From a virus: 64,000 bases of DNA. Below, piece by piece: positions 29,116 to 60,206 of the stretch. The notes beneath the pieces were generated by a model, which was not told where the DNA came from, did not search any database, and worked only from the letters and a program-made list of their open reading frames with translations. The stretch covers positions 1-64,000 of IMG/VR virus record IMGVR_UViG_3300025138_000014; one strand, 5' to 3'. The translations under genes and the position numbers were made by a program. Position 1 is the first letter of the stretch, and every line of letters starts with the position of its first letter.

Positions 29116-30135
29116 ATGAATTGGTTGATGTACTTAAAGACGACAGAAACCTGCCAACTAAATTGTAGCCATTGTTTCACGAGTGGTCGTAATGGGCAGA
29201 AAATATATTGGAACACTACTAAAATTGTAGATTGGCTTCAAAGGTTTCGTGAAGAAAAACCCTCAAAAAATGATACAGCTCATATGGAGTTTCATGGCGG
29301 CGAACCATTCTTGGTTCCTGTTGGCCAAATGAGAAAAGTTTATGATGCTTGTGATGGTTTATGGGATCACATGACTTGGGGAGCAACTACAAATCTTGTT
29401 TTTAAATTAAAAGACGAACATAAAGAATTTATTAAAGGTCCTCTTGGTAATAGACTAGGTACATCTTGGGATCGTAAAATAAGATTTGAAAATAAAGCGC
29501 AATACAATCTTTGGCATAAAAATATTAAAACACTTCTATCTGAAGGCGTGACAATACGTCTTTTTATTAGTCTAACAAAGGATACCATTAAAAAAGATCC
29601 AATCGTACTATTAAGATGGATAAAAAGACTTGGAGTGCAAGAGGTTTCACTAGAAAGACTAACAAATAACGGTTCTGCTCGGAAACAAAGCTCAATTTTT
29701 CCATCAAATAAAGAATTAGACGAATATTTCCTTAAAATGCACATGCAAAGTGAGAAATATGGGGCACGAGAATGGTTTGATAATGATTTTTTAGAGAATA
29801 TATACGCTAAATTTGAGAAAACTCAGACAAATTGCGGTACTTTTTGTAGAGATTGTGAAGAAAAACTATTTACAATCAATGGGAATGGTACTATAGCAGG
29901 TTGTCCGAATTCTGCTCCAGAACAAGCATTTGGACACTTAGACGAACCAATAGATGTTATGTTAAAAAGTCCTAAAAGGATTAGAGGTATTCTTGAAGAA
30001 AGAATCCGAAATCCTATTTGTTATACGTGTCCTGTTACAAAATGGTGTGGTGGTGATTGCCATCAATTGGGATGGGATGGAGATACCTGTGGCGCACCAA
30101 AAAGTCTGATGAAAGAACTCGCTGGATTTGTATAA
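29116..30135 (+). CDS. radical SAM/SPASM-domain enzyme
   Basis: CxxxCxxC 'CQLNCSHC', 'FHGGEP', C-terminal 'CRDC..GCP..CYTCPVTKWCGGDC..C'. Confidence 0.92.
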   Translation: MNWLMYLKTTETCQLNCSHCFTSGRNGQKIYWNTTKIVDWLQRFREEKPSKNDTAHMEFHGGEPFLVPVGQMRKVYDACDGLWDHMTWGATTNLVFKLKDEHKEFIKGPLGNRLGTSWDRKIRFENKAQYNLWHKNIKTLLSEGVTIRLFISLTKDTIKKDPIVLLRWIKRLGVQEVSLERLTNNGSARKQSSIFPSNKELDEYFLKMHMQSEKYGAREWFDNDFLENIYAKFEKTQTNCGTFCRDCEEKLFTINGNGTIAGCPNSAPEQAFGHLDEPIDVMLKSPKRIRGILEERIRNPICYTCPVTKWCGGDCHQLGWDGDTCGAPKSLMKELAGFV

Positions 30136-30138
30136 ATA
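30131..30138 (+). promoter_or_regulatory. T4 late promoter TATAAATA
   Basis: Exact consensus 34 bp upstream of the CHxS-tail gene at 30172. Confidence 0.7.
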
Positions 30139-30171
30139 GAGTAAAAGAACAAGGTATTTACGGAGAACAAC

Positions 30172-30759
30172 ATGGTATCACTAACCAATCCAATAACTGC
30201 TCAAAATATAGTAAATAGATATGCTGATTATGTAGTTGCAACTTCAAACTCAGGCATTGTTTGGGGTACTAATTCAGTTCCGTTTAGTGATTTTTCTACA
30301 TCATATTTTGGTGGAACGACTGCTGGTCGGAGCATTGGAATTACTGGAGCCGATATAGACAACAATGTTAATAAAATTGATGCTTCCGAAATTAATGATG
30401 CTTTGGCAACAGAGACGGCAGCTTATAGTAACATACGTAAACTTAGGGCAATATTAAATTATACCGGTGTTGGTGACGGAGCAGGTGGCGCAGGTAACAC
30501 TGGAACTTGGCTCGGGACTCCAGGTGTTAACTTTGATCAGACTCAAGTTGCTTATCTGAATAACCAATATTTACAAACAATAAGTGCAACCACCAATTTA
30601 GGTGCAGGAGATATAATTGATGATTCTGTATTAGAAACTAAATTTGGCGCATTATCAACAGTCTATACAGCTGCTAGAAATAATACTCAGACAATTCAAA
30701 TTGATGTTTGTCACTCATCTTGTCACAGTAGTTGCCACGGATCAAGAGGACGCAGATAA
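30172..30759 (+). CDS. CHxS-repeat-tailed protein A (195 aa), putative radical SAM substrate/precursor
   Basis: Ends CHSSCHSSCHGSRGRR*; RBS GGAG; body is G/T/S/N-rich like a virion protein. Confidence 0.8.
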   Translation: MVSLTNPITAQNIVNRYADYVVATSNSGIVWGTNSVPFSDFSTSYFGGTTAGRSIGITGADIDNNVNKIDASEINDALATETAAYSNIRKLRAILNYTGVGDGAGGAGNTGTWLGTPGVNFDQTQVAYLNNQYLQTISATTNLGAGDIIDDSVLETKFGALSTVYTAARNNTQTIQIDVCHSSCHSSCHGSRGRR

Positions 30760-30762
30760 ATT

Positions 30763-31437
30763 ATGAACAATGTTGTTGAGACTACAGCACCAATTGATAT
30801 TAATGAATTAAAAAAGTTTTTTGAAAACAAAGACACATTTTATTTGATCAATTATGAGGAATCAGGACTCCAAGGCGTGAATCTATTAACGTATATGAGT
30901 AATCTTGATCTACCAGCTGATGTAGGATTTCAAACTCAAAAGGGTTTTGATGATCTTACTACAGCTTACTTACATGAGGAAGTAATATTAACTGTTCCTA
31001 TTTTGGAAATGAGAGTTATCGAACTTTTACTCCAAATGAAAGGTATGGTAGAGCCGAGAGAAAAAGATTTTATTGATGCGAATGTGGATATTCTAAAACT
31101 TTGGGCTAAAAAGTTGGATTCTCTTACACTCTTTAATATGTATTCTATTGGTCAAGAATCCTTTCACGATTATGTTAAATCTTATCCAATTGATAAAACT
31201 ATTTCAAATAAAGGTATAAATTTTGTATCTTTATTGAAGCATGAAAGATTTTTTATGTTTTATGGTAATATATATGAAGAACATAAAATATACTATGAAT
31301 CATACTTTAACGATTATATGTTCAAAGGTAACAATCTATTTCACTATTGGGCAAACGAAAATAATCCAATGTTTCTGTTAACGCAAGGGATTGCTTCAGG
31401 ATCACTACAGGAGAATCCAAATGTTCCATCTATTTAA
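30763..31437 (+). CDS. hypothetical protein (224 aa), paralog of 51198..51962
   Basis: Shared 'Y(M/L)(S/A)N', 'G.N...LL', 'F.G.(N/D)L(F/Y)' patterns. Confidence 0.75.
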   Translation: MNNVVETTAPIDINELKKFFENKDTFYLINYEESGLQGVNLLTYMSNLDLPADVGFQTQKGFDDLTTAYLHEEVILTVPILEMRVIELLLQMKGMVEPREKDFIDANVDILKLWAKKLDSLTLFNMYSIGQESFHDYVKSYPIDKTISNKGINFVSLLKHERFFMFYGNIYEEHKIYYESYFNDYMFKGNNLFHYWANENNPMFLLTQGIASGSLQENPNVPSI

Positions 31438-32569
31438 AAGAGTATATGTTGCTAGTGATGATATAATTGACTTTTCTATTAATAGAGTTGTTATATCTGA
31501 TATAAACGGTTTTCATGATGCAGGTTCTTCCGTTAATCAAATAGCATTTGCAAAAGACTGTTCAGATTTAATAGGTAGTGGTAAAGATAAACAGTTTAAA
31601 AGTTGGATTGATTTTTTTAGAACTATGTCTGATTTTACAGATACATTTAATAACGATAAAAAAGTGGTTATTTACTGTGATGATGATAATTTTATTAAAG
31701 TCATGTGTGCTTGGTATAAAATTATTTTTAAAGATCCTAGTGAAAAAACTTGTTTAAATTTATTAGAATCCAATGTGTTTAGATATAGAGTATTTGGTCA
31801 AGGCAGATGGGCTAAATCTTTTGCGGGAGATGCTAATAAATCATTCGACTTAAAGAACTTTAAAACTCATTGGGCAGCTAATAAAAAGCCGACCATTGCA
31901 TTGAGAAATAAATTTATTGAAGACTTCAAAGGCAGTCTTAATGTAGAACTATTGCTAGCAACATATCTTGCCAATGGAGAGATGAAAGTTGAACTGAAAA
32001 AAGCAGTAAAAACTATGCTATCTCTTGATTTGGAAAAATACCTATATGAACTAAAAGAATTATTCTTTACGCATATTATGACCAAAAAATATCACGCACG
32101 TTTACCAAAACCACTCAAAATGCAATTTGTATATCATTTCGGTAACTATGATACATCGCTTAATGATGACTCACCTATTGCAGAACTATTCTTATCTGAA
32201 CGTATATGGAACTCCAAGACCATGCGCAAACCCACTGCTGGTAAGAATATAAAATTCAATAATATCACTAGTGCTGATATCAAATTATTTAAACACTTTG
32301 ATAGTACATTCTTTAATACAGATACAGATAATCCAAAAATGATGAAGTCGGAATCATATAAACTAAACTGGATAGATGCTGTTAATGAAAATGAATTTTC
32401 AGACAAGCTGTTAAATAAGATTATTGAAAACGAATCATCATTTAATAATCTTCTAACCCCTGTGTTTTCCATGGAACAATCTACAGTAAATAATTATTTG
32501 GTAACAGCTTTATTTGAAGCACGAAATGATAATGATAAAGGTTTCTTAAAGAATTTTGCGATCATGTAA
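31421..32569 (+). CDS. hypothetical protein (about 382 aa)
   Basis: Likely start ATG 31421 (MFHLFKRVYV) after AGGAG RBS. Confidence 0.75.
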   Translation: MFHLFKRVYVASDDIIDFSINRVVISDINGFHDAGSSVNQIAFAKDCSDLIGSGKDKQFKSWIDFFRTMSDFTDTFNNDKKVVIYCDDDNFIKVMCAWYKIIFKDPSEKTCLNLLESNVFRYRVFGQGRWAKSFAGDANKSFDLKNFKTHWAANKKPTIALRNKFIEDFKGSLNVELLLATYLANGEMKVELKKAVKTMLSLDLEKYLYELKELFFTHIMTKKYHARLPKPLKMQFVYHFGNYDTSLNDDSPIAELFLSERIWNSKTMRKPTAGKNIKFNNITSADIKLFKHFDSTFFNTDTDNPKMMKSESYKLNWIDAVNENEFSDKLLNKIIENESSFNNLLTPVFSMEQSTVNNYLVTALFEARNDNDKGFLKNFAIM

Positions 32570-33589
32570 ATGTCTATATATGATCTATTAGAAAACAAAA
32601 TAACAACTTATGGTGAGATTGTTTGCTGCTTATTTGAGCACTGCAATCTAAAATGTGTTTTCTGCCCTCAAGATCATAATGATATACAAGGTGCTGACCG
32701 TGATGCTATTATGGCTAAAGTGCCACAGATTGTAGATTGGATTAATAATAATAGAAGAACTCAGGCTTATAAATTACATTTAATGGGCGGAGAACTCTTT
32801 CAAGATGAATGGATAGATAAAGGTTTCCTAGAAATATATCAGGACTTTATTGATTCTATTATAGCACAAACGGAAGCTGATGTCTACATAAATTTTATAA
32901 CTAATTTATGTTTTACTAAGTCAGATGTTGTAATGGAATTTTTAGAAGCAAATGATTTAACTATCTCTGTAAGTTATGATCCAGCTGGTAGATTTACTCC
33001 TAAAGCACATGAGATTTTTGTTTCTAATATTGAAACATATAAAGATAAGATTGAAATGATCTCGCTAGTTGCCACAAAACAGAATATAGCAAAAATTCAA
33101 CGTGGTGATAATTTATTTACATATCTTTACAATACATATCCTTGTGACTTTGACTCATTCTTACCTTCTGTAGATAACTCAAGAAAACTAATGCCTAGTG
33201 AAAGAACTCTTTTTGAGTTTAACAAATTGCTTGTATCTAAATATCCGAAATGTTTAAATGTTGATCATTTCGTTAATCAAAAAACACAGAATAAAATGAT
33301 TTGTACAAGAGGCAATTCTCTTACTGTAATGCCAGACGGATCTATTCCAACTGGTTGTTCTGGAGCAGTATTCTTAAAAGAAGCATCAACACCTGACCTG
33401 GCTGGTCCGGTGATCGTTGAAAAGTTTATGGCTAAATATAATTGCTTCGAGTGTAAATACTTTGCCCGATGCCCATTTAGCTGTTTCATTAAACAAGATT
33501 ATAAACACATTGAGCAAGATATGGACGAATGTGTATTTAAGGCGACATTCAAATATGCAGATAGCATTCATCAACCCACCGCATGCTGA
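32570..33589 (+). CDS. radical SAM/SPASM-like enzyme
   Basis: 'FEHCNLKCVFC', 'LMGGELFQD', C-terminal 'C..GC..CFECKYFARCPFSC..C'. Confidence 0.9.
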   Translation: MSIYDLLENKITTYGEIVCCLFEHCNLKCVFCPQDHNDIQGADRDAIMAKVPQIVDWINNNRRTQAYKLHLMGGELFQDEWIDKGFLEIYQDFIDSIIAQTEADVYINFITNLCFTKSDVVMEFLEANDLTISVSYDPAGRFTPKAHEIFVSNIETYKDKIEMISLVATKQNIAKIQRGDNLFTYLYNTYPCDFDSFLPSVDNSRKLMPSERTLFEFNKLLVSKYPKCLNVDHFVNQKTQNKMICTRGNSLTVMPDGSIPTGCSGAVFLKEASTPDLAGPVIVEKFMAKYNCFECKYFARCPFSCFIKQDYKHIEQDMDECVFKATFKYADSIHQPTAC

Positions 33590-35252
33590 TTGGTCATTAG
33601 CTAATAACTTCACATTTCTACTCATGCAAAGTTATTATAATCGCTTTGGTAAATATGCTGGGCAGATAGAATGGCTTGAATCTCCATATAAATGGAATAC
33701 CTATGAATCCTATGACGAAGTAACATCAGAGGTTATTAGTGCTGATGTAATTATGTTTTCATCTTATACATGGAACTATGTTATCTGTGATGAAATTTCG
33801 GCTAAAATTAAAAAAGAATATCCAAACAAAATATTAGTTTTAGGCGGTCCTCATATAGGTACAAATGAACCAGAACTATTAGCATCACGTCCGCAGTATG
33901 ATTTAATTTGTAGACCTACCAAACCAGGTGAGCCTTTTATGGCCGAGTTGATTGACCAGTTTATTGAAAAGAGAATTGATCCAACATATATCCCATGGGA
34001 GTTAAGGTCTGATATAGAAGTCATACACGATATAAGCAAAGAGGATTATTCAGTTTATGAAGATCACTTAGAATATATTACAAAGCTATTAGATTATTCA
34101 AGAGAACATAAGATGGAGCCTTTCATTGTTTTAGAGACAACAAGAGGTTGTCCTTACAAGTGTGTATTCTGTGAATGGGGTGGCGGTATCAATACAAAGA
34201 TTTATAAAAAGTCTGTAGATATTGTAAAGCGTGATATTAATGCTATGATAAAAGCTGGATATAGAGATGCTTATTTAACTGATGCAAATTTCGGAGCATT
34301 TCTAAAACGTGACTTTGAAATATTTGAATATGCTTGGGATAACAGTTTTAATTTAACAGATATATCCACTATGAAGTCAAAAGATTTACCAAGAAGAAAA
34401 GAGCTGATTGATAAGTGGTTTGAAATAGTAGATAAGCACGTTAAGGCGCCAGGTTCTACCGATGGTGAGGATATGTGGACTGAAACAGCTTTTGTTTCAT
34501 TAGTCCCAACTGTATCCATTCAAAGCAGTTCTGATACAGCCATGAAGTTAGCCGATCGTGTTGATTTAAATACTTATGATAAATTAAAATTAAGTGAATA
34601 TATTAATGAAAGATGTACTGAACACGGATATCCAATTCCAGCATTAGAGTTAATTCTTGCTATGCCCGGTTCTACAATAGATGACTTTTATTTTGAAATG
34701 GAATATATTTGGAACTTTAAAGCATTCGGTTCTTATCGGCACGACTATATGTTTTTGCCTGACTCAAGACTGAACTCTCCAGAATATAAGAAAAAACATA
34801 ATATTGAAACAGTAGAAGTATATTCAGATATTGTAGATGAACACGGCTCTGATAATTGGAACAGTTTATATAAAGACAAGAAATCATATTTTAGAACTAT
34901 CCTATCTTGTTTCTCTTTTACAAAAGAGGAGATGTATGAGATGTGGTTTATGAATAATGCGTGCAACTATATTCTACAGAAATTTTATCCACCTTTTGAG
35001 AAAAAAATGTCACCATCGGTATTTACAAAAGCAGTATATAATATTATAATAGAGTTAGACGAATGGATAGATATATATAATGAGATTAAAGATATTTACG
35101 ACCCAAATACTGCGCCTAAAAGTATTAGACAATTAGGTGGAAAATTTAGAACAGATTTTATAAATGATGTTCTGGAAAAAAATAGAATTATTATTATGTC
35201 GGAGGTTCATGGGGCATGTCAGGGAAGCAACTCACATTACAACTCACATTAA
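33555..35252 (+). CDS. cobalamin(B12)-binding radical SAM enzyme
   Basis: Likely start ATG 33555 (MQIAFINPP); B12-binding-like 'FSSYTWN...KIKKEYP...VLGGPH'; 'ETTRGCPYKCVFCEWG', 'DANFG', 'ELILAMPG'. Confidence 0.88.
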   Translation: MQIAFINPPHADWSLANNFTFLLMQSYYNRFGKYAGQIEWLESPYKWNTYESYDEVTSEVISADVIMFSSYTWNYVICDEISAKIKKEYPNKILVLGGPHIGTNEPELLASRPQYDLICRPTKPGEPFMAELIDQFIEKRIDPTYIPWELRSDIEVIHDISKEDYSVYEDHLEYITKLLDYSREHKMEPFIVLETTRGCPYKCVFCEWGGGINTKIYKKSVDIVKRDINAMIKAGYRDAYLTDANFGAFLKRDFEIFEYAWDNSFNLTDISTMKSKDLPRRKELIDKWFEIVDKHVKAPGSTDGEDMWTETAFVSLVPTVSIQSSSDTAMKLADRVDLNTYDKLKLSEYINERCTEHGYPIPALELILAMPGSTIDDFYFEMEYIWNFKAFGSYRHDYMFLPDSRLNSPEYKKKHNIETVEVYSDIVDEHGSDNWNSLYKDKKSYFRTILSCFSFTKEEMYEMWFMNNACNYILQKFYPPFEKKMSPSVFTKAVYNIIIELDEWIDIYNEIKDIYDPNTAPKSIRQLGGKFRTDFINDVLEKNRIIIMSEVHGACQGSNSHYNSH

Positions 35253-35764
35253 AAAAATGTTTAGATCAATTCGGATTTGCACAGCTATCTGAACCTGAAG
35301 GTCTTGGCGTGATAGATATTGATCAGTTTCAGTTAAGAAATACTGAAGAGCGAGCAAGAGATAATGGAGTTAATGATATACCACCATTTTTACAACTTCG
35401 CTTACACACATTCGGACACTTTTTATATGAAAAATATATTTTAAAAGATTGGCCGGATGCAGTTTTTAATAAGTATCTAATTTGGGACGGAGTGGATAAA
35501 GATAATCAAGGATGGCACACTGATATGTTTGAATCATATGACGTGTTTCTTTTATATTACTTAGATGACACATTTCCAGAAACTGGAGGCAGTATAAACT
35601 TTAAATGGAAAAATGAAGAAGGTATATCTGAAGAATTGTCTTTTCAACCAACAGCTGGAGACTTGTTTATGATTTCTAATAAAAGAGGTTTCTGGCACAA
35701 AGCTGGTCAGTCATCAATACAACGGAGGGTTTGTTCTTTTGACTTTAATACAAACGATAGTTGA
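35216..35764 (+). CDS. 2OG-Fe(II) oxygenase
   Basis: HxD 'WHTD', 'YYL.D....GG', distal 'WHKA', 'RRVCSF'. Confidence 0.78.
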   Translation: MSGKQLTLQLTLKKCLDQFGFAQLSEPEGLGVIDIDQFQLRNTEERARDNGVNDIPPFLQLRLHTFGHFLYEKYILKDWPDAVFNKYLIWDGVDKDNQGWHTDMFESYDVFLLYYLDDTFPETGGSINFKWKNEEGISEELSFQPTAGDLFMISNKRGFWHKAGQSSIQRRVCSFDFNTNDS

Positions 35765-36056
35765 CGAAAAAAATATTCTTTGTAAGGAAAGAGACTTGAC
35801 TGCAGAATTATATAATCTTTGGATTACTAAACTGCATGACTTTGAAGATATTCCAGAAAAATACGAACAGTATATGAAAATGATTGATAATCTTGAACCT
35901 TATGCAAATATGCTTAAAGAAGCCATAAGAGAAAAGAATAGTGAAATATGTAAACACTATGGAGTTAATTCTATTTCAGATACACCTCATTCAGTAGAAT
36001 GTATAAACAAATATGGTTATGATAGACCTAATGGAGCCGTACTGGAAAGAGGATGA
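35739..36056 (+). CDS. hypothetical protein (105 aa)
   Basis: Fills gap in tightly overlapping operon. Confidence 0.6.
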   Translation: MTLIQTIVDEKNILCKERDLTAELYNLWITKLHDFEDIPEKYEQYMKMIDNLEPYANMLKEAIREKNSEICKHYGVNSISDTPHSVECINKYGYDRPNGAVLERG

Positions 36057-36526
36057 TTGCTTTTGACACAGATCTGCTTGTAAATGGATATAAAGTTTTT
36101 GAGGATAAAAAAATACTCTTTACTTTAGGTAAAATACCTGATATAAAAGAATGGGAAGGAGATCAAGTAAAGTCTCCAAAAGGCTTTGATCTCCGACTAG
36201 CTCAAAATTATATTAACAATAAGTATGTTGCGCCAGTATTTGGTGGAGCAGTATTTGGTTATAGTAATATATGGAGTGGAACAGATAGCAATAGTAAAGA
36301 ATGGCACAATGATTTAATTGAAGGTTTTAATCTATTTTTTATGTATTACCTAAGTGATATAACAGAAGGCGGAGAGTTATGTTTCAGAGTTAATGGTAAA
36401 GAAACTGGTTCAATTCAGCCTAAGAAAGATATGCTGGTAATGGGATCTCAAGAAAGATACGTTGAGCATAAAGTGAACGACTGCAATCAGGAAAGAATAG
36501 TGTGTAACTTTGGATACAATATATAA
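36053..36526 (+). CDS. 2OG-Fe(II) oxygenase
   Basis: 'WHND', 'YYLSD..EGGEL', 'EHKV', 'RIVCNF'; paralogous to 35216. Confidence 0.78.
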   Translation: MIAFDTDLLVNGYKVFEDKKILFTLGKIPDIKEWEGDQVKSPKGFDLRLAQNYINNKYVAPVFGGAVFGYSNIWSGTDSNSKEWHNDLIEGFNLFFMYYLSDITEGGELCFRVNGKETGSIQPKKDMLVMGSQERYVEHKVNDCNQERIVCNFGYNI

Positions 36527-38089: not shown

Positions 38090-38112
38090 TGTTATCTGAA
38101 GATTAGAACCAT

Positions 38113-38120: not shown

Positions 38121-38152
38121 AACTAAACCACTATAACATTGGATTTAGTTGA

Positions 38153-38506
38153 ATGGCACAATTCGAGCAATTAGAAATTGATCAGGGCACAGATGTCGCT
38201 GTTGAAATGCACCTGACAGATAAGGACGGTTCGGCAAAGAACCTTACTAATCATACAATAACAGCTAAACTTAAAAAGAATTACAGTTCTGATAGCGCAG
38301 ATACGACAAACTTTAATTGTATTGTTGTTTCTCCTGCTACATCAGGTATTGCTACAATCTCTTTAACAAACTCACAAACAAGTGCGCTTAGATCAGGCAA
38401 ATACGTGTATGACGTAGAAATGGCCTTTGTAGATAGCGACTCTAATACAATTATTGAAAGAGTGTTAGAAGGTCAAGCTATTGTAACACCGAGTGTGACA
38501 AGATGA
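38153..38506 (+). CDS. small Ig-like virion/fibre adaptor protein
   Basis: 'IDQG.D', 'NLT..T..AK.KK.Y', 'ISLT..QT..L..GKYVYDVE', 'RVLEG...VTP.VT'. Confidence 0.65.
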   Translation: MAQFEQLEIDQGTDVAVEMHLTDKDGSAKNLTNHTITAKLKKNYSSDSADTTNFNCIVVSPATSGIATISLTNSQTSALRSGKYVYDVEMAFVDSDSNTIIERVLEGQAIVTPSVTR

Positions 38507-51962: not shown

Positions 51963-52965
51963 TACATATGCTGGATACTGGAATTTCAAAAAAGATAAAT
52001 CTCCAGTAAATCAGGCATTTTTAAGAACAGAGATCAACCTTGACATTCTTCACGGCTGTAGCCAGATGTGTCCAGGCTGTTTTATTCCCAGAAAAAACTT
52101 AACTGATCCAAATGGAATGATAGAACTTCATAAGTTGCTTATCAATGGGCAATTTTATCCAGATGAAATCACTATTGGTCCAACTGATATATTTGATGCA
52201 GAAAATTTTGATGAAGTTATGAGACATCCTGGGCTCAAACTTCTTTATGAAATATCAGGTGTCGGATATACAACTACTTTACTACAACATGAAGAAGTTG
52301 TAAAGAGAAAACTTGCTATGATCTGGGATATTTATCAGCACATACATAGAATGCCAGATATGGATTTCAAAATTGTATTTGATATTGACAAATATCTTGA
52401 TGGAGAACTAGATGATTGGTATAAAAAATTAGAGTTATTCAATCTAGGTTCCGTTCAATTTAGGGTAAACTACCATAAAGGTGTGTTTGATAGAATTGGA
52501 TATAATGAGTTATGTAAAAGAGTTAAAGAGGATTTTAATACTCCGATTATTATTACTCCAAGTTTCTTAACTGATAGAAATGTAAGAGGAAAGGTTGATC
52601 AACATCTTGCTTCATTTAGACAAGAGTTATTAGATCAGAAAATAGATAGAGAATGGCTTCAGTATTATACATTCTTTGACGCCGAGTTTAATGGACTTGG
52701 TTGCCAGAACTATTCTTTTTATAATGGAAAGCTATATACAAATCCATTTTTATATGATAATATAATCCAGAGAACACCTAAGTTTGAAACAACTATGGAT
52801 GAAAATACCCTGTTTGATAATATAGATTATGCTCAACAGGTAGATGACTGTAATGGGTGTGAATATATGATGAGTTGTGCAGAGCGCAATATTCACTTAT
52901 ATATGGAGTCACGTAATTTGGAATCATGCGTTGCTCTTAAAGAGTATATGTATGCCCCTCATTAA
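51943..52965 (+). CDS. divergent radical SAM enzyme (IGPTD type)
   Basis: 'GCSQMCPGCFI', 'IGPTD', 'CNGCEYMMSC...C'. Confidence 0.85.
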   Translation: MIVHLNDTYAGYWNFKKDKSPVNQAFLRTEINLDILHGCSQMCPGCFIPRKNLTDPNGMIELHKLLINGQFYPDEITIGPTDIFDAENFDEVMRHPGLKLLYEISGVGYTTTLLQHEEVVKRKLAMIWDIYQHIHRMPDMDFKIVFDIDKYLDGELDDWYKKLELFNLGSVQFRVNYHKGVFDRIGYNELCKRVKEDFNTPIIITPSFLTDRNVRGKVDQHLASFRQELLDQKIDREWLQYYTFFDAEFNGLGCQNYSFYNGKLYTNPFLYDNIIQRTPKFETTMDENTLFDNIDYAQQVDDCNGCEYMMSCAERNIHLYMESRNLESCVALKEYMYAPH

Positions 52966-54115
52966 AAATAATCTATTCTATGAATTAACTACAGAGACAC
53001 AAACCAAACCAGTATCAGCCGTAAAACTTCAGCTTGATGTATTAGACGGATGCCATCATAAGTGTCCGGGTTGTTTTGTTCACAGACGTGGTAATTCTAG
53101 TAATAAACATCAGTTAAGTGATGCTAAAAAATTCATAAGAAGTATAACAGACCAGGGTATTCTAGTTGATGAAATGCTTATTGGTCCTACAGATTTTCTT
53201 GCTTCAGAAAATTTCTATGAAGTTATGCCAGATCTGTTAGATATAATTAATGAAAATTCTCCTATTCTTGCATTTGTTTCAACTCTTATTGATGGAGACT
53301 TGAAGCGATGGACTCAATATATTACAGATAATATTAATATCAATACTGAAATAGAAATTGGTATTGCTACAAATCCTGCAAAGTTTTATGAAGAAGGCTA
53401 TAGACAACTGATTCAAGATAAGTTAGATTATATAGATAAGAATTTGGAACACGAGGTAACTTATACTTTTGTTGTAAATATTAGAGATTATGGTATTGAC
53501 TATGAAAAATTACATAACCATTCTGTCGTTTGTTTTAAAACGGTTTTAGACTTTGTTCCGTCTGTTAGTAGGTCACATAAGAATTACCTCATATTAAAGA
53601 TTTTAGATAAATTTAACGTGTTTTTTAATGAGCTAAGTGCTTATAAAGAAAGCAAAATAAATAACATTATGGTAGACCATTCACACGGTGGTCTGAATTA
53701 TACTGTTTTAAACTACAAGACAGGCAAGTGGTATTTAAGTCCTTTTATGTATGAGAACATGGCTATCTATGATGATATGTTTCATATAGATAATTTCAAT
53801 GATGTTACTGCTATTGTGGAGAAACAGATACAAAGAGCAAAAGGAACTGAGTGCGAAGATTGCCCTCTATTCTTTAGTTGCTATAATAGAAAAATTATAT
53901 TACTCAGAGATTATCTTGGCGTTGATAGATGTATTGCACCTAAAGAAAACATGATGGCACATATACATAACTACAACGGTCCTGCTCAGACTATGTATGA
54001 CTGGGATGGTTATTCAGTTGAGAACGATAAAAACGGATATAGAAAAAAGTTTTTAGTGACTCAAGAGAATGACCCAGAATTAGAACGACTCAGAGAAATA
54101 TCCTATGTTAAATAA
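52952..54115 (+). CDS. divergent radical SAM enzyme (IGPTD type)
   Basis: Likely start ATG 52952 (MPLIKNN); 'GCHHKCPGCFV', 'IGPTD', 'CEDCPLFFSC...C'. Confidence 0.85.
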   Translation: MPLIKNNLFYELTTETQTKPVSAVKLQLDVLDGCHHKCPGCFVHRRGNSSNKHQLSDAKKFIRSITDQGILVDEMLIGPTDFLASENFYEVMPDLLDIINENSPILAFVSTLIDGDLKRWTQYITDNININTEIEIGIATNPAKFYEEGYRQLIQDKLDYIDKNLEHEVTYTFVVNIRDYGIDYEKLHNHSVVCFKTVLDFVPSVSRSHKNYLILKILDKFNVFFNELSAYKESKINNIMVDHSHGGLNYTVLNYKTGKWYLSPFMYENMAIYDDMFHIDNFNDVTAIVEKQIQRAKGTECEDCPLFFSCYNRKIILLRDYLGVDRCIAPKENMMAHIHNYNGPAQTMYDWDGYSVENDKNGYRKKFLVTQENDPELERLREISYVK

Positions 54116-55241
54116 CGATTGGGCAGACATTGTAAATAACGGCAAAATGTTAGAAGAATATTCTGCAATTAGCCAAATGAAACAATACAAGATTCAAGTA
54201 ACTCTTGAGCTGCTTGAAGGCTGTTCTTATCTTTGCCCGGGTTGTTTTGTAAAACGTAGGGGTAATTGGCATCCAAAATCAATAGCATTATTTCATAGTT
54301 TAGCATATGAACTTAAAGATAGAACTGATATTGTTCTTGATGATATTGTTATCGGACCTACAGATTTCTATGGCGCAGAAAACTTAGAAGAAATACTTGA
54401 TGATCCTAGATTGGCTGATGCTATTCTTATGATGCCTGAGGATAATAGAAACATACAACATAACTGTTCTATTTTAGGTTCTCTATCTGAAAAAGATATT
54501 GAGAGTAAAATTAAGAAAGTTGAAAATTCTAGGCTGGGAGCTGTAGTTAAATGTTGGGATGTGCAAATTGCACTAGATTTAAATAGGTTACTTAACGATG
54601 ATGATTATAGACAAGCACTTGAAAATAGAGTAAAGATGTTTGAAGATAGTTCACTAGAATTTGAAATATCAATGGCAACTAACATTGTAAATAATATTGA
54701 AAGTATATTATTTGAAGCCATAAATTACACTAGAGAAAAATATTCTACAGTTATAGAAATACTTCCATCTGTAGTTAGGTCATTAAGTGCTAATAGCAAA
54801 CATGCCGTGAAACTATTTAAGTGGAACTCCATGCTTGATACTTTTGCCAAAGAGCCGGATTTTAAAAATAAGTTTCATTTCCTACAAGGAGATATATCTC
54901 ATAAGACTTTTCAATATGCAGTTGTTAATATACATTTTGGAAAGTTTTATGCTTCACCATTTATTTATGAAAATGCTCAGATTTATAAAGAATCATTTGA
55001 AATTAAAATTAATGATTCTATCCATGAATCTATACTAGCACATAAAGATGCAATTGTAAACAAACAAATAGAAAGTAGTGCAAATAAAGAGTGTGGTTCT
55101 TGTAAATATTTAACCATATGTTCTCATAGAATGATTCCACAAGTAATGGACACATTTTTTAAAGACCGATATGAGTGCATATTAAATAAAGATGTAATAA
55201 GTATCTGGGATTATGAGGTGTATCGTGGGAATAGTTATTAA
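54105..55241 (+). CDS. divergent radical SAM enzyme (IGPTD type)
   Basis: 'GCSYLCPGCFV', 'IGPTD', 'CGSCKYLTIC...C'. Confidence 0.85.
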   Translation: MLNNDWADIVNNGKMLEEYSAISQMKQYKIQVTLELLEGCSYLCPGCFVKRRGNWHPKSIALFHSLAYELKDRTDIVLDDIVIGPTDFYGAENLEEILDDPRLADAILMMPEDNRNIQHNCSILGSLSEKDIESKIKKVENSRLGAVVKCWDVQIALDLNRLLNDDDYRQALENRVKMFEDSSLEFEISMATNIVNNIESILFEAINYTREKYSTVIEILPSVVRSLSANSKHAVKLFKWNSMLDTFAKEPDFKNKFHFLQGDISHKTFQYAVVNIHFGKFYASPFIYENAQIYKESFEIKINDSIHESILAHKDAIVNKQIESSANKECGSCKYLTICSHRMIPQVMDTFFKDRYECILNKDVISIWDYEVYRGNSY

Positions 55242-56241
55242 CAATAAAAGAGCTGCCCAAGCAGATGCAGACTTTGATGTAAGTTTAGGTCAAGGACATG
55301 AAATAAAAGTCCAGTTCAATTGTGAGATATTATCTGGCTGTGAGTTTAAATGTAAAGGATGTTTTGTTAATAAATTAGGCAACAATGTTGGGTCATTTGA
55401 TAGGTTAAACAATGCCATTGATCTGTTTAGCGCAAATGGATATAGAGTATCAACAATTAATATCGGACCCACAGATTTATTCGGTAATAATAATGTTATT
55501 GAGTTATTGAAAGATGAAACCTTTCGTGAATGTTTAAGCAAAGTTTCTACTATACAATTCGTCACGACCCTAATAAACATTTCGTCAGAAGTAATTGATT
55601 TACTTAACAGCATACCTAAAATAGATGGGTTTATGTATGATGCAAACATAGCTTTACAACCACCAGTAAATTGGGATATGATAGAGGAACGGCTAAAACT
55701 ACTCAACGGTTTTACCGATGATCTAAATTATTATATGGTTTATAATATGGGTAATGATGACGAGTACAATAATAAAGTATTAGAAATGTCTGATATTGTA
55801 GATGATAGATTTGATTCTATTCTTACATTAAATCCATCATTCTTTAGAGCGCCAAAAAGTAAAGTACAAACACATCTAATTGAGAAGTGGAAAAATTATG
55901 ACTTTTCACCTGACTTATATCCAAAGACAATTATTGATAAATCGCAAGGTGGAAGTCTTGAACTAAATTACACATACTGTAATGGTAGGTTTTTCTGGAC
56001 TCCATTTGTATATGATATTGCTATGATCGGAACTAAGGAGTTTGAAGTCAAAGATGAGAACGATATTGAATCTTGGACTGAAGCTAAATCATTTCAATTT
56101 ATGAAACAATTAACGTATTCTAGTGAAACGGAAAACTGTGGTTCTTGCGGTAACATGATGACTTGTATAGACAAAGGGGTTCTAAGTTATATGGAACATC
56201 ATTCAATTAAATCTTGTGTCTTTCCTGGAGTCTTTTCATAA
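55213..56241 (+). CDS. divergent radical SAM enzyme (IGPTD type)
   Basis: 'GCEFKCKGCFV', 'IGPTD', 'CGSCGNMMTC...C'. Confidence 0.85.
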   Translation: MRCIVGIVINNKRAAQADADFDVSLGQGHEIKVQFNCEILSGCEFKCKGCFVNKLGNNVGSFDRLNNAIDLFSANGYRVSTINIGPTDLFGNNNVIELLKDETFRECLSKVSTIQFVTTLINISSEVIDLLNSIPKIDGFMYDANIALQPPVNWDMIEERLKLLNGFTDDLNYYMVYNMGNDDEYNNKVLEMSDIVDDRFDSILTLNPSFFRAPKSKVQTHLIEKWKNYDFSPDLYPKTIIDKSQGGSLELNYTYCNGRFFWTPFVYDIAMIGTKEFEVKDENDIESWTEAKSFQFMKQLTYSSETENCGSCGNMMTCIDKGVLSYMEHHSIKSCVFPGVFS

Positions 56242-57323
56242 TCAAATCCTGTTATAAGATTTTGACCAGTTTTATCCATGTAATTAAACCACATTCTCAT
56301 AATACAATCTGGTAAATCTCTCTCACGATTTTTCCAGTCCCATTGTGTATAGCATCTAAATCCACACTTGTTGTACCACTTACATGATAAGCAACCATTT
56401 TCATCCATATAAGCCTGCATCATGCCAGTATTATCTTTACGCTCAAACTTTGTATTAAAGTCCCTTTGATCGTATCTATCCCATCTACAATTAGATGTAG
56501 AATTATCTGGAAATATGGTAACTTTATTCAGAGCCAAACAGTGCATGTGATTAGACTCATTATAGATTAGATCCTTAATAGGGTTAATATCAGGATAGTT
56601 GTGATATACAAACTTTAGAAACTCCAGATATTTACTATCGGACGGAATCATATAATCATATCCACGGTCTGGAATATAATCGTCAAAATAGAAGTTGTCA
56701 AATTTATCATACAGATAATGAAAATACTCATCATCATCTGCCATGAACTTTTCTATACTGAGAGTAGTTGCTACCATATTAATTGAAGTAATATAATCAG
56801 CAAAATATTCAATGTTCTTTGCGTAGGGACCTTTTGTTGGTCTCCCGTCAAAGTCATAAGAGCAAATAATAAAGCTAGGTATATCAATAGCATTTAAATC
56901 ATCTAATAACTTTTTTAGTCTTTCTCTTTTACTAAATTGAAAAGAAGTAACCCACACAATTTTTATTGTTTGATCATGCTCGTCATAAATCTTTTTAACA
57001 GCTACTAGGAAATCATAATAATATGGATAAAACTCTTCCGATATTCTATCTTGAAATAATTCTCCTCCAAGCATATTGATCTGAATAATATCAGCACGAC
57101 CTTTCATCTTTATAACGTGTTCTTCAACCAATTCAAGCTTTGAAAATATACCCTCACGAGATAGTCCAACTTCAGACTTTTTATCATGGTGGCAGAACGA
57201 GCAGTTGAGATGACAATTCTCAAATAGAGTCATCTCAATCTCTGCTATATCAGGCCGTTTAGCCTCAAGCAAAGTTCTTGTAAAATCATATTCTGGGTTC
57301 GACTGAACCTTAGAGTTGATCAA
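56199..57323 (-). CDS. radical SAM/SPASM-like enzyme, paralog of 32570
   Basis: 'LFENCHLNCSFC', 'MLGGELFQD', 'CLSCKWYNKCGFRC...C'. Confidence 0.9.
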   Translation of the reverse strand: MINSKVQSNPEYDFTRTLLEAKRPDIAEIEMTLFENCHLNCSFCHHDKKSEVGLSREGIFSKLELVEEHVIKMKGRADIIQINMLGGELFQDRISEEFYPYYYDFLVAVKKIYDEHDQTIKIVWVTSFQFSKRERLKKLLDDLNAIDIPSFIICSYDFDGRPTKGPYAKNIEYFADYITSINMVATTLSIEKFMADDDEYFHYLYDKFDNFYFDDYIPDRGYDYMIPSDSKYLEFLKFVYHNYPDINPIKDLIYNESNHMHCLALNKVTIFPDNSTSNCRWDRYDQRDFNTKFERKDNTGMMQAYMDENGCLSCKWYNKCGFRCYTQWDWKNRERDLPDCIMRMWFNYMDKTGQNLITGFDYEKTPGKTQDLIE

Positions 57324-57717
57324 ACATCATTTCCTCTTCATAGTATTTCCTTATATCTGGAACCATTCCTCTGCTTTCATCCCAATCTTCAAGTACAATA
57401 TCTAGGATAGCATGATAAACATCTGGATCGGTAGTATATCTTTTAAAGTATGGATCGTTATTAAAAAGTAAATCTACATCATCTAGTGCGGCAAAGAAGT
57501 CTTCGTTAAAATCTTCGGAGATCCATTTAGCATAACAGATAGCCACGGCATATGATTTTGCTGGATAAAGCCAAATATCCACTTTCTCATAAAAGTGCAT
57601 GATTGCATTATTAATAATTTCTTCATCAATAACAATATCAACTTTGTTTAGATCATCTTCATGTTCTGTTACCATATGGTGAAATGCTTTTTGTCTTACT
57701 TTCCATTCCTGCATCAC
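57310..57717 (-). CDS. hypothetical protein (135 aa, acidic)
   Basis: Coupled ORF between two radical SAM genes. Confidence 0.75.
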   Translation of the reverse strand: MMQEWKVRQKAFHHMVTEHEDDLNKVDIVIDEEIINNAIMHFYEKVDIWLYPAKSYAVAICYAKWISEDFNEDFFAALDDVDLLFNNDPYFKRYTTDPDVYHAILDIVLEDWDESRGMVPDIRKYYEEEMMFDQL

Positions 57718-58769
57718 GCAACTCCTTCTAAATACATTTGCGATTCATCAACATAAGGTGTAATAGCATTTTCACTCATACCATTCATCTTTAATATTTG
57801 AGGTGCTAGTCCTTTCATCTGTTTACAATGTGCTTCAACAGTCTTTTCTCTTTTCATGTCACGTACTGTCTTTTTACAACCATTACATATTTCAAACATA
57901 GGACAACTAAAGCAAGACATTTTCATAGACTGAATATTTGGATCATGCTGTAACGGAGTTTGCATTTTTCCATTCATCTCTTCCTCAAAGTTGATTGGAT
58001 AATCCATATCATCTGCAAAAGAGCCACATGAATAATAATCTCCACCTGGATTAAATGCTCTAATTCCTTCATCACATTTTCTATTTTGCGGACAAGTTGT
58101 AGCACTTCCACCCAGCCGTCTTACCAACTGCTTTGTATTATATTCCCATTCGGTAAGACCTTGGTTATACACGTCAACGTAAATGGCATACATCTTACTT
58201 AATCTGTAAGTACTGCCTTGAACTCCAGAAGCCATAGCATAATTTAATTTACATTCGACATTCATTTCTTTAGCCAGCTTCACATTATCAATAGCACGAT
58301 AATCACTCATATCAGTCATAACGGAAATAAAGTCTGCTCTTTCACCGCAATACTTCAACATAGCATCTTGGCATCTCCAAAAGTCCTCTACAGTAAATTC
58401 GGTAAAATCACCTTTTAATCTACCACCACCAAATTGGAAAGATGTAGCAATACCCATTCGTTCGTGATTAAATAGATCAACCCACTTTTGTGGCTTCATT
58501 AAGAATGGCCATAAGTTTGTAGTGAAACTGATACTGGCTTTATAGTCATGTTCATCTAAGTGATCAATTAGATCCCAATAATATTTGGGCTTGACCATAA
58601 GTGGATCGCCACCATTAATAATTAAAGTATTGGTTTCTGGGTATCTTTTAAGGAATCTGTAGATATAATCTAAATCTAGTAACCCGGCTTTATCTGGGTC
58701 AATAGCGGTAGATGAACAGAATGAGCATTTAAAGTTACACGCTTCTGTAGGTTTAATAATTAGATCCAT
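57714..58769 (-). CDS. radical SAM/SPASM-domain enzyme
   Basis: 'KPTEACNFKCSFC', 'NGGDPL', 'CP....C...YSC...CFSCPMFEICNGC...C'. Confidence 0.92.
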   Translation of the reverse strand: MDLIIKPTEACNFKCSFCSSTAIDPDKAGLLDLDYIYRFLKRYPETNTLIINGGDPLMVKPKYYWDLIDHLDEHDYKASISFTTNLWPFLMKPQKWVDLFNHERMGIATSFQFGGGRLKGDFTEFTVEDFWRCQDAMLKYCGERADFISVMTDMSDYRAIDNVKLAKEMNVECKLNYAMASGVQGSTYRLSKMYAIYVDVYNQGLTEWEYNTKQLVRRLGGSATTCPQNRKCDEGIRAFNPGGDYYSCGSFADDMDYPINFEEEMNGKMQTPLQHDPNIQSMKMSCFSCPMFEICNGCKKTVRDMKREKTVEAHCKQMKGLAPQILKMNGMSENAITPYVDESQMYLEGVA

Positions 58770-59791
58770 TGCTTTTCTTCCGCTAGAGTCATCATCAAGG
58801 TTTTAGGTGCAGGACAGACATCATCCATCCAATAGAGTTGGTGACAATCAGATTTACAATATAAGAAAACTGGGCACTTATAACATCTCTCATCTCTATC
58901 GTTTATTTCTTCACTTATTGTGCACATTCGTGCAGGATTTAATTTTACTACCTCTGCTGGAGTATTTATAGTATCGTAATGTTTTGTTGGTGCAGTATTT
59001 GGACAACCCGCTACTGTTCCATCAGCATTAATAGTAAAAATTTTCTGCTCACAGTCACGACAAAAAGTACCAATACTAAATTGCCCATGTGAAAATTTCT
59101 TATAAACTGAGTCTAAAAATCCATTAAAGACATTATGATCTTTAGTTGTTTTGTGCATCTTCATCCACCAAGCATCTAATTCTCTATTATGTGGAAAAAT
59201 ATCAGTATTAATTTTAGCATTACCATCGTGGGTTAATCTCTCATAACTAATTTCATCAATGCCTATTGATTCCATATAGTCCGCTATCCATAGAGGTTCT
59301 AGTTTTAGAATGTCCTTAGATACCGAAATAAAACATTTCATTCTGTGACCACGAGAAGCTAAAAACTTTACATTGTTTTCCCATAGTTCTCTTTGTTTTT
59401 CATTAGAAAATCTAATATTTGGATCCCAGCTGGTTCCAATACTTCCGCCATCAATACATTCTTCAAGGAATGATAATCTTGCTTCATTTAATTTAAAAAC
59501 TAGATTGCTAGTTATTCCATGGGTACAACGGTCTCCCCATTGATCTTTAGTTATCCGATGAAATTCACGTAAATGATCCATTGGTGCAAGAAGAGGTTCT
59601 CCACCGTGATATTCTAAATGAATTTGATTTGTTCCGTTATCTAATTGATTGACCCAGTTAGCAGTCTTTATATGGTCAAAATAAATCTTTCTACCATTCT
59701 TACCGCTAGTGAAGCAATGGAAACAATTAAGATTGCAGGTTTCCGTTGTCTTCACATACACGCAAGTAAATTTTTGTGTCACTAATGCCAT
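58760..59791 (-). CDS. radical SAM/SPASM-domain enzyme, paralog of 29116
   Basis: 'KTTETCNLNCFHCFTSG', 'YHGGEP', 'GTSWD', 'CRDC..GCPN..CYKCPVFLYCKSDC..C'. Confidence 0.92.
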   Translation of the reverse strand: MALVTQKFTCVYVKTTETCNLNCFHCFTSGKNGRKIYFDHIKTANWVNQLDNGTNQIHLEYHGGEPLLAPMDHLREFHRITKDQWGDRCTHGITSNLVFKLNEARLSFLEECIDGGSIGTSWDPNIRFSNEKQRELWENNVKFLASRGHRMKCFISVSKDILKLEPLWIADYMESIGIDEISYERLTHDGNAKINTDIFPHNRELDAWWMKMHKTTKDHNVFNGFLDSVYKKFSHGQFSIGTFCRDCEQKIFTINADGTVAGCPNTAPTKHYDTINTPAEVVKLNPARMCTISEEINDRDERCYKCPVFLYCKSDCHQLYWMDDVCPAPKTLMMTLAEEKQWI

Positions 59792-60206
59792 AACTGAATA
59801 TCAATGCTTCCTGAGTGTTTAATGCACGATGTTTTGTGCCTTTTGGTATTTCTACTTGTTCACCTGGATTTAGTAACTTTGTAGAACCTTCAATTTCTAA
59901 TATTTTATTACCATCGCAGCAATATATTACTACATCTACTGGATCTGTATGTTCTTCAAAAGATGGACCATCAATAGGATTATAAAATATATGCATCGTG
60001 CCTTCATTATAATCAACAATCTTTTCATACATCTCAATTTTTAATGTATTCTTTTCTGCGATTAAAGCCGAAATTTTACCATAATATACCCAATAGTTAT
60101 CTTGTTCAACATACTGTATTCTGTGTTCACTATCTATAACCGAAACATTACAAACATTGAAGCACTGTTCGGAGAGAATAAACTCAAAGAACTGTTCAAA
60201 ATTCAT
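59727..60206 (-). CDS. cupin/JmjC-like protein
   Basis: 'SFEEHTDPVDV', 'G.K', 'L.PGE...IPKGTKHRA'. Confidence 0.75.
   Translation of the reverse strand: MNFEQFFEFILSEQCFNVCNVSVIDSEHRIQYVEQDNYWVYYGKISALIAEKNTLKIEMYEKIVDYNEGTMHIFYNPIDGPSFEEHTDPVDVVIYCCDGNKILEIEGSTKLLNPGEQVEIPKGTKHRALNTQEALIFSYGISDTKIYLRVCEDNGNLQS

Follow-up and report, generated by a model that had tools for sequence, protein, structure and literature searches.

A cassette of radical SAM enzymes obligately linked to Cys-His-tailed proteins and fibre genes in phages and predatory bacteria

Why would a phage surround its tail-fibre genes with a cassette of ~21 kb that encodes 12 radical S-adenosylmethionine (SAM) enzymes? The question is raised by the first 64 kb (positions 1 to 64,000; hereafter the window) of the 151-kb IMG/VR virus record IMGVR_UViG_3300025138_000014, which has a CheckV completeness of 71% and an estimated full genome of ~210 kb. 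Its baseplate genes are T4-like (gp48, gp5, gp6, and gp8-type PHROGs) and its gp6 homolog is closest to that of the uncultured phage C48C1 (40%), followed by those of OM43 phage Melnitz and Pelagibacter phage HTVC008M (34%), so the record derives from an uncultured marine T4-like myophage. By blastp, the enzymes fall into six clades: A (two members), B (two members), C, D, E (five members), and one B12-binding enzyme. Clades C and D are present in single copy, one in each of the two blocks of the cassette, suggesting that the two blocks are one system and must work together. Encoded with the enzymes are three small proteins with a common C-terminal Cys/His tail, and the genetic linkage of tail, enzymes, and fibre is obligate. 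We infer what the substrate is (the tail), what chemistry it undergoes, and where the tailed protein sits (on the fibre), and we hold with moderate confidence that a virion protein associated with the fibre has its tail modified or cross-linked by enzymes that are expressed late.

The candidate substrates, here termed TAIL proteins, are TAIL-1 (30172-30759, + strand; 195 amino acids, tail codons 30709-30756), TAIL-2a (48124-48510, +; 128 amino acids), and TAIL-2b (48510-48896, +; 128 amino acids). They end in CHSSCHSSCHGSRGRR, CHNSCHTSCHTSRGRR, and CHSSCHTSCHTSRGRR, respectively, and all three ends read (C-H-x-S)3-R-G-R-R-stop, in agreement with an initial annotation of the window that had noticed three genes with a common Cys/His/Ser tail. 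Across all 151 kb of the record there are three copies of the motif, and a reversed control has none. The bodies of the TAIL proteins are 20-60% identical, the tail is constant, and the tail codons of the three window genes vary at synonymous sites; collectively, these observations suggest that the tail itself is under selection. The tail Cys are the sole Cys in each of the three window proteins and in 67 of 95 relatives.

A TAIL profile matched 840 cluster representatives among 1.84 billion. Within the best 150 of these 840 representatives, the C, the H, and the R-x-R-R end are near-constant, the fourth position of the repeat is mostly S, N, A, T, or D, and a few members carry a different end or 13 repeat units. 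The Ser of the tail, as initially described, thus holds for the three window proteins and not for the family, and its invariance in motif-derived TAIL alignments (A1, A2) is a product of the search pattern and not a finding. Among five variants inspected individually (P0126, P0134, P0129, P0119, and P0131), two have four C-H-x-S units and then a Gly/Pro-rich end that replaces R-x-R-R, one has 13 units in blocks, and two stop directly after the third unit.

Structure predictions indicate that the TAIL proteins are folded proteins of 125-300 amino acids whose flexible C-terminus carries the motif. The AlphaFold2 model of TAIL-1 is an alpha/beta domain with a mean predicted local distance difference test (pLDDT) score of 86.8, of which the last 15 residues are of low confidence, and the model of TAIL-2b (pLDDT 78) shares a helix-hairpin-helix core with it; the two proteins are homologous by hhalign (99.6%). 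Searches with the TAIL-1 model gave no match among solved folds (Foldseek against the PDB, best E 1.3; VIA wide, best Z 4.1), TM-scores of no more than 0.31 in the Atlas, and family members only in BFVD. Three BFVD entries from Myoviridae sp. ctijX18 (A0A8S5USJ7, A0A8S5USJ8, and A0A8S5USV2) are proteins of 504-660 amino acids that contain a domain of the TAIL-body fold (TM 0.50-0.54), suggesting that the body may also occur fused into larger structural proteins.

All 12 radical SAM genes listed in the initial annotation are present with their CxxxCxxC motif, which lies at residues 11-43 or, in the B12-binding enzyme, at residue 199 behind the B12-binding domain. Clade A comprises rSAM-A1 (29116-30135, +), an anSME-like minimal radical SAM/SPASM protein with the motif at residue 13, and its paralog rSAM-A2 (58760-59791, -; 44% identity). 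Clade B comprises rSAM-B1 (32570-33589, +; motif at residue 25; PF04055, 9.5e-5) and rSAM-B2 (56199-57323, -; PF04055, 9.8e-5), and the single-copy clades are represented by rSAM-C (57714-58769, -), the most conserved enzyme of the cassette, and rSAM-D (37187-38089, +). Clade E comprises rSAM-E1 (48896-50080, +), rSAM-E2 (51943-52965, +), rSAM-E3 (52952-54115, +; PF04055, 0.0019), rSAM-E4 (54105-55241, +; SPASM domain, 0.005), and rSAM-E5 (55213-56241, +). The CxxxCxxC motif is invariant in alignments of clades A, B, and E. The SPASM-type Cys tails that had been ascribed to these enzymes apply in full only to clade A, which has eight invariant C-terminal Cys (the full SPASM set); clades B and C have 6-7 (seven of them invariant in clade B), and clades D and E carry half of the motif, with four Cys.

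Seven enzymes (rSAM-A1, A2, B1, B2, C, D, and the B12-binding enzyme) matched radical SAM models at E < 1e-3, and clades A to D together with the B12-binding enzyme matched models of radical SAM proteins or of peptide or protein maturases at E values of 1e-25 to 1e-3. The best NCBIfam matches were all peptide or protein maturases, with equivalog scores ~10-fold under the family cut-offs. For PF04055 (gathering threshold 29.5 bits), rSAM-D alone scored above the threshold (29.7), rSAM-A1, B1, B2, E3, and the B12-binding enzyme scored 18.7-23.1, and rSAM-E1, E2, E4, and E5 gave no match. For the SPASM model TIGR04085 (cut-off 27), the scores were 28.3 bits for rSAM-A1, 23.7 for rSAM-A2, 22.1 for rSAM-C, and 17.2 for rSAM-E4; rSAM-C also matched the anSME model (3.9e-11) and SPASM (1.5e-4). 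A clade A profile matched the anSME structures 4k36-39 in the PDB over its full length (E 5e-9), which makes anSME, a protein-modifying enzyme that lacks an RRE, the nearest relative of known structure, and a single-sequence PDB search with rSAM-A1 gave no match. The B12-binding (class B) enzyme (33555-35252, +) scored 30.9 bits against PF02310 (2.7e-7; cut-off 32.1) and 87 bits against a KedN5-family model (6.5e-25; cut-off 700); judged from its sequence, it is probably a C-methyltransferase, and it is an optional member of the cassette. In the NCBIfam searches no cassette enzyme scored high enough for membership of a cofactor or nucleotide-modification family, an outcome that the initial annotation had named as refuting its reading.

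Clade E is the most divergent. Its members have an invariant CxxxCxGC, a GPTD that replaces the GGE motif, and a C-terminal CxxCx5C...C, and they align with clades A and B at 58-60% hhalign probability (E ~1e-4) with the motifs in register. Their neighbours in the ESM Atlas, among them those of rSAM-E1 and rSAM-E2, are viral radical SAM/SPASM clusters; a clade E profile gave no sequence match in the PDB.

The other enzymes of the cassette are oxygenases, likewise as first annotated: one cupin/JmjC-type protein (59727-60206, -; Cupin_2, 1.8e-7; JmjC_2, 22.3 bits, cut-off 22), the first gene of the minus-strand operon, and three 2-oxoglutarate (2OG)-Fe(II) oxygenases. One of the three is a strong match (60263-60847, +; PF13759, 2OG-FeII_Oxy_5, 1.2e-14; homolog of RSL2 ORF078). 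The other two, at 35216-35764 (+; PF13640, 1.3e-4, below cut-off) and 36053-36526 (+), are weak matches and paralogs of each other (33% identity). An acidic accessory protein of 224 amino acids without Cys (30763-31437, +; phrog_20767, 3e-53), which gave no Pfam, NCBIfam, or Atlas lead, follows TAIL-1, and its homolog (51198-51962, +; hhalign 96.3%, E 1.9e-9) belongs to the type-2 module described below. Each TAIL type thus has its own member of the accessory family, as would be expected if these proteins hold the substrate. At E ≤ 0.01, neither the TAIL proteins nor any accessory protein matched an NCBIfam family.

Are the tail and the enzymes associated outside the window? A back-translated motif scan of IMG/VR returned at least 118 contigs with the motif, which stands at the exact C-terminus in 141 of 141 motif-bearing open reading frames (ORFs) among the matches listed; locus counts given out of 116 below refer to loci among those matches. 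Conversely, relatives of clade A are encoded on 382 IMG/VR stretches, and among the best 80 of these, the next gene carries the motif in 74, with the remaining six stopping at the contig end. The initial annotation had proposed a test for independent occurrence of tail and enzymes; instead, they are tied together in both directions, across hundreds of genomes.

The neighbouring genes follow two fixed orders. In type 1, a fibre gene is followed by the cupin gene, rSAM-A, a TAIL of ~180-200 amino acids, the phrog_20767 accessory gene, a further gene, rSAM-B, C, and D, a phrog_20737 gene, and a 2OG oxygenase gene; the cupin gene precedes rSAM-A in 58/116 loci and the accessory gene follows TAIL-1 in 77/116. 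In type 2, the fibre gene is followed by two TAIL genes (~127 amino acids), an rSAM-E gene, a further gene, an accessory gene, and additional rSAM-E genes. The window holds both types.

The cassette is also present in cultured phages. Searches of cultured phages with the region (megablast, tblastn) and with TAIL-2b gave no match, and searches with the accessory gene and rSAM-C reached 15 cultured-phage records. The carriers include phages of Ralstonia (RSL2, RSF1, FLC4, and RsoM3USA), Burkholderia (FLC6, FLC8, and SURPRISE13), Pseudomonas (pPa_SNUABM_DT01), Agrobacterium (Atu_ph07), and Sinorhizobium (Phosso). RSL2, which is phiKZ-like, and Atu_ph07, which is Rak2-like, encode the cupin, clades A, B, C, D, and E, TAIL, the accessory protein, the 2OG oxygenase, and phrog_20737 at 30-58% identity. 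Specifically, rSAM-A1 is 46-51% identical to RSL2 ORF067 and Atu_ph07 gp171, rSAM-B1 31-32% to RSL2 ORF072 and Atu_ph07 gp168, rSAM-B2 36% to RSL2 ORF072, rSAM-D 42-55% to RSL2 ORF077 and its Atu_ph07 homolog, and rSAM-C 53-58% to its jumbo-phage homologs.

A scan of one genome per prokaryotic species returned 27 motif matches, comprising ~13 in Bdellovibrionota, several on phage-like contigs of marine metagenome-assembled genomes, and five chance matches (L125, L128, L141, L144, and L146), which lie in high-GC DNA with no cassette and were rejected. In Bdellovibrionota the cassette is chromosomal; on two contigs of 0.3-1.3 Mb it stands amid housekeeping genes. It is a mobile cassette common to T4-like phages, to phiKZ-like and Rak2-like jumbo phages, and to predatory bacteria, and the notion of a system peculiar to T4-like phages does not hold.

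What the carriers share besides the cassette is a fibre gene. In phages, the protein encoded upstream of the cassette ranges from 258 to 2824 amino acids and always has the same 150-residue C-terminal domain, which in an alignment of 35 members matches PF11962 (Peptidase_G2) in 28 (best 2.3e-7); the window copy scores 24.2 bits (E 2.6e-5; cut-off 25). A profile of this domain weakly matched the chaperone domains of phi29 gp12 (E 0.008-0.014) and Dpo31 in the PDB. The 151-kb record encodes just two Peptidase_G2-type domains, each directly upstream of one block: they form the last ~150 residues of fibre protein 1 (27355-29097, +; 580 amino acids), as a predicted intramolecular-chaperone (self-cleaving) domain, and the C-terminus of fibre protein 2 (46027-48123, +; 698 amino acids), which carries collagen-like G-x-x repeats. 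The start codon of TAIL-2a abuts the fibre 2 stop codon (TAA ATG) and TAIL-2b overlaps its neighbours at both ends (TAATG), so that fibre 2, TAIL-2a, TAIL-2b, and rSAM-E1 are arranged for translational coupling. A complex prediction for the fibre C-terminal domain (alignment A3) with TAIL-2 (alignment A2) scored 0.00, which is no evidence either way.

In the predators the fibre is of another kind. The phage-type (Peptidase_G2-type) fibre domain was not found in the five Bdellovibrionota genomes searched, and fibre ORFs terminated by Peptidase_S74 lie 3.6-14.5 kb from the tailed gene in 5/5 of them; in one genome, the sole S74 copy is the one that neighbours the cassette. In Bdellovibrio, fibres of the S74 kind are the MAT adhesins by which prey is recognised (PMC10769870). 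These observations suggest that two kinds of self-cleaving fibre, with a G2 end in phages and an S74 end in predators, are linked to the same cassette. The same end domains occur in phi29 gp12 (Peptidase_G2) and in endosialidase, T5 pb1, and the Bdellovibrio MAT proteins (Peptidase_S74; PMC10769870). For these self-cleaving systems, neither a radical SAM partner nor a Cys-His-tailed companion has been described, and PMC10769870 makes no mention of radical SAM. The cassette-linked S74 fibre ORFs (G001:C1:299947-300102, G002:C4:205331-206574, G003:C7:252801-252965, G004:C5:209163-210809, and G005:C55:592-3373) have 340-413 amino acids, cluster within 15 kb, and are far shorter than the described MAT fibres.

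When is the cassette expressed? The motif TATAAATA, which by analogy with T4 we take to be a late promoter, has 14 matches in the window, eight of which lie 6-35 nt upstream of start codons (P ~4e-11). The start-linked sites (7323, 7823, 16075, 19675, 30131, 38113, 60238, and 62777) stand ahead of baseplate, fibre, and cassette genes. Two copies precede TAIL-1 (30131-30138, +; 34 nt ahead of its start) and the minus-strand operon of cupin, rSAM-A2, rSAM-C, phrog_20737, and rSAM-B2 (60238-60245, -; 32 nt ahead of the cupin start). This distribution suggests that the sites mark T4-type late transcription units.

Where does the tailed protein end up? The tailed ORF of Atu_ph07 (RefSeq tag FDI40_gp170) has a computed mass of 31.89 kDa and all three of its Cys in the tail. 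According to Table S5 of the paper on that phage, gp170 (31.89 kDa) is a virion protein identified by eight unique peptides at 35% coverage; it is spread over gel bands 1-9 with its peak in band 1, the position of proteins of 127 kDa and 137 kDa, whereas other ~30-kDa proteins peak in bands 7-8 (PMC6102473). This suggests that gp170 runs mostly as a high-mass species after sodium dodecyl sulfate treatment at 95 °C, and enzyme-made links are a possible cause. The enzymes gp165, gp166, gp168, and gp171, the accessory protein gp169, and the cupin gp172 are absent from the virion list, and the fibre-like gp176 (66.07 kDa) and gp177 are on it (PMC6102473). Of the two locations that the initial annotation had considered for the products, a virion tip or adhesin protein and a released peptide, the former gains support from these proteomic data and from the conserved fibre linkage. 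The latter finds none, since the substrates are predicted to be folded proteins of 125-300 amino acids (pLDDT 87 and 78 for the two models) with the motif on a flexible end. Separately, gp176, which has a Peptidase_G2-type end (L005:6620-8443), peaks in band 4 with proteins of 50-56 kDa; its migration is compatible with the loss of a ~15-kDa chaperone domain and is not decisive.

The sequence of events that would best accommodate these results is as follows. Once a TAIL protein is translated, an accessory protein of the phrog_20767 family would hold the body of its own TAIL type (that encoded at 30763 for TAIL-1, that at 51198 for TAIL-2) while the radical SAM enzymes, clades A to E and the B12 methylase, abstract hydrogen atoms in the tail, leading to covalent changes centred on Cys and His. 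The likeliest of these would be the formation of thioether or C-C cross-links, perhaps from one chain to another, and/or the oxidation of Cys; the B12 enzyme would add methylation, and the cupin/JmjC and 2OG oxygenases hydroxylations, with His or Arg hydroxylation as the candidate reaction for the JmjC_2-type cupin. The finished TAIL would be built into the virion with the fibre encoded upstream, whose Peptidase_G2 domain would self-cleave on assembly, and the enzymes would stay in the cell. In a more specific version, which we regard as conceivable and rather doubtful, the enzymes would staple the Cys-His tails of separate chains to one another, or to the end of the fibre that chaperone self-cleavage lays bare, through thioether or C-C bonds, yielding a covalently closed and possibly metal-holding knot at the working end of the host-recognition fibre.

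Several observations weigh against modification of the tail. No modification has been observed on any family member, and the sequences of the five clade E proteins connect them only weakly with the radical SAM superfamily. No relative of solved structure argues for a place of the TAIL body on the fibre, and the virion evidence comes from one data set on a distant family member of 296 amino acids. Moreover, the loading buffer of that study is listed without reductant (PMC6102473), which means that disulfides would suffice for the high-mass band. The Cys/His tail could also be a plain metal site. In that case the tail would bind Zn, Fe, Ni, or an Fe-S cluster unmodified at the end of a structural protein, and the enzymes would act on another nearby target, such as the fibre with its collagen-like repeats, a glycan, or a lipid. 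Regularly spaced Cys and His are typical of metal-binding sites, any of S, N, A, T, and D is accepted at the fourth position of the repeat, and the window encodes an enzyme of collagen-modifying type together with a collagen-like fibre. However, the tail adjoins the enzymes in every evaluable locus and in both directions, at least five enzyme clades follow the TAIL gene even where the fibre switches from Peptidase_G2 to S74, each TAIL type has its own accessory paralog, and the constant R-x-R-R end is unneeded for metal binding. We therefore consider a metal site with enzymes acting elsewhere unlikely.

Among the cassette genes, searches of Pfam, NCBIfam, and PHROGs found no peptidase, ligase, transporter or exporter, and no PqqD-type RiPP recognition element (RRE; RiPP, a peptide made by the ribosome and modified after translation), with four cassette proteins remaining without assignment. 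This result bears on two further explanations. Radical SAM/SPASM enzymes such as PqqE and MftC make pyrroloquinoline quinone (PQQ) and mycofactocin, and the TAIL protein could by analogy be a scaffold that carries a growing small molecule or cofactor at its C-terminus until the product is set free, as for PQQ, mycofactocin, or pearlin-like products, its presence in virions being incidental. The position of the motif at the exact C-terminus (141/141 among the matches listed), like that of the MftA and pearlin scaffolds, and the many tailoring enzymes of differing types would suit such a role. We nevertheless think it improbable: the peptidase, ligase, and transporter that it calls for were not found, TAIL is abundant in purified virions (35% coverage), phages and predators alike keep the cassette close to fibre genes, and its transcription signals are of the late, structural class. 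More improbable still is a classical RiPP, in which the tail would be cleaved from the body and leave the cell as a bioactive peptide. The tail resembles CXXX-repeat, ranthipeptide, and His-Xaa-Ser precursors and the best enzyme matches are RiPP maturases, yet the scores of those matches are 10-fold under the family cut-offs, the 'leader' would be a folded domain of 110-280 amino acids, no protease, exporter, or RRE was found in the cassette, and the protein is a virion component. Collectively, the folded substrates and the lack of a detectable leader protease, exporter, or RRE suggest protein maturation in the manner of anSME, QhpD, or HXS rather than a classical RiPP.

How close are these known systems? 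Like anSME/AtsB and QhpD, clade A enzymes are radical SAM/SPASM proteins (~340 amino acids, no RRE) that would act on Cys in a folded protein, and the anSME and QhpD models match cassette enzymes at 1e-10 to 1e-7. The anSME scores fall far short of family membership (TIGR03942, cut-off 349; 38.9 bits for rSAM-A1 and 42.6 bits for rSAM-C), there is no sulfatase or amine dehydrogenase partner, and the cassette has several enzymes rather than one. The last repeat, C-H-x-S-R, recalls the C-x-P-x-R site of sulfatases, a likeness that is a lead only. Ranthipeptide, sactipeptide, and CXXX-repeat systems (PapB, CteB, and TIGR04115) share with the cassette a Cys at every fourth substrate residue and an adjoining radical SAM/SPASM enzyme, and they are among the best matches. 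The scores are again ~10-fold under the cut-offs (PapB NF047865, 41.3 bits, cut-off 340; TIGR04115, 35.5 bits, cut-off 350), and the cassette differs in having a folded virion protein as its putative substrate and in that no leader/RRE logic, protease, or exporter was found.

The HXS antiphage system, in which the effector HxsA is matured by the radical SAM enzymes HxsB and HxsC with the small partner HxsD, is similar in its folded protein with short His-containing repeats, its use of more than one radical SAM enzyme, and its small non-enzymatic partner; its modification maps to the last repeat, beside basic residues (Li et al., Nat Commun 2026, PMC13128918). In contrast, the cassette scores only 26.4 bits for HxsB (TIGR03978, cut-off 370) and 26.1 bits for HxsC (TIGR03977, cut-off 267.9), and the NCBIfam models of HxsA and HxsD had no match among the TAIL and accessory proteins. 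The cassette further differs in its C-H-x-x' repeat with an obligatory Cys at the extreme C-terminus, in its 5-6 enzyme clades plus oxygenases, and in being encoded by phages and predators beside fibres, with its product in virions. HXS also suggests another role for TAIL: instead of being a fibre part, it could be housed inside the virion or ejected from it and work in the host envelope at DNA entry, for example by countering or mimicking HxsA-type effectors. In HXS, the periplasm is where the radical SAM-matured His-x-Ser repeat protein affects the entry of phage DNA (PMC13128918). The basic R-x-R-R end of TAIL could attach to DNA or to anions of the envelope, and TAIL is present in virions. 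We give this idea little credence, as the fibre linkage is conserved, the cassette also stands beside adhesin-type fibres in predatory bacteria, and there is no homology to HxsA-D past the generic radical SAM core. On these comparisons, the best-supported placement is that the cassette belongs to no curated family and would work in the way that anSME, QhpD, or HXS maturation does.

The known targets of radical SAM maturation are peptides and a few enzymes and defence effectors, and in the literature that we searched we found no description of such maturation for structural or host-recognition parts of viruses. Jumbo-phage genome papers label genes of the cassette as 'radical SAM', 'Fe-S oxidoreductase', 'cupin', or '2OG oxygenase', and literature searches on radical SAM enzymes in the context of jumbo phages, RiPPs, tail fibres, and virions, and searches for the motif, returned mentions in gene lists without interpretation. 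The cassette is widespread, with 840 TAIL cluster representatives and viral contigs in the hundreds, which come from phages of the sea and of soil, and it crosses into predatory bacteria. Were the chemistry of the tail solved, it could yield new reactions from five uncharacterised radical SAM clades, explain how some fibres become stable or sticky, and provide a new marker for fibre modules in metagenomes. If stapling of the tails were true, it would be an enzyme-made covalent virion maturation without precedent, common to phages and to the prey-gripping fibres of predators. The cultured carriers Atu_ph07, RSL2/RSF1, FLC6, SURPRISE13, pPa_SNUABM_DT01, and Phosso make the cassette directly testable.

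The remaining genes of the two blocks are less informative. In the first block, a conserved protein of ~382 amino acids (31421-32569, +; ATG with AGGAG upstream) has no family match in NCBIfam or Pfam and follows the accessory gene in 38/116 loci; the B12-binding enzyme is present in 11/116. A small ORF with an uncertain start (35739-36056, +) has homologs in few loci, and a protein of 226 amino acids (36510-37190, +) is rare in other loci. In the second block, a protein specific to the type-2 module (50077-51183, +) occurs in 24/116 loci, always after the first rSAM-E gene, and a small acidic conserved protein (57310-57717, -; phrog_20737, 2.9e-40) has homologs in RSL2, Atu_ph07, and Bdellovibrionota.

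Three further genes lie outside the blocks. The gene for a protein of 1676 amino acids (22100-27130, +; phrog_358) separates the baseplate wedge genes from the first of the fibres linked to the cassette. Directly 3' of rSAM-D, with a late-promoter motif ahead of it, is a gene for a protein of 117 amino acids (38153-38506, +) that matches phrog_3304, 'L-shaped tail fiber protein assembly' (4.5e-19). Finally, a protein of 645 amino acids (60844-62781, +), which combines a phrog_61 2OG-Fe(II) oxygenase (6e-100) with an N-terminal glycosyltransferase part, is encoded 12.7 kb downstream of the collagen-like G-x-x fibre; that fibre, and not the Cys-His tails, may be what it hydroxylates or glycosylates.

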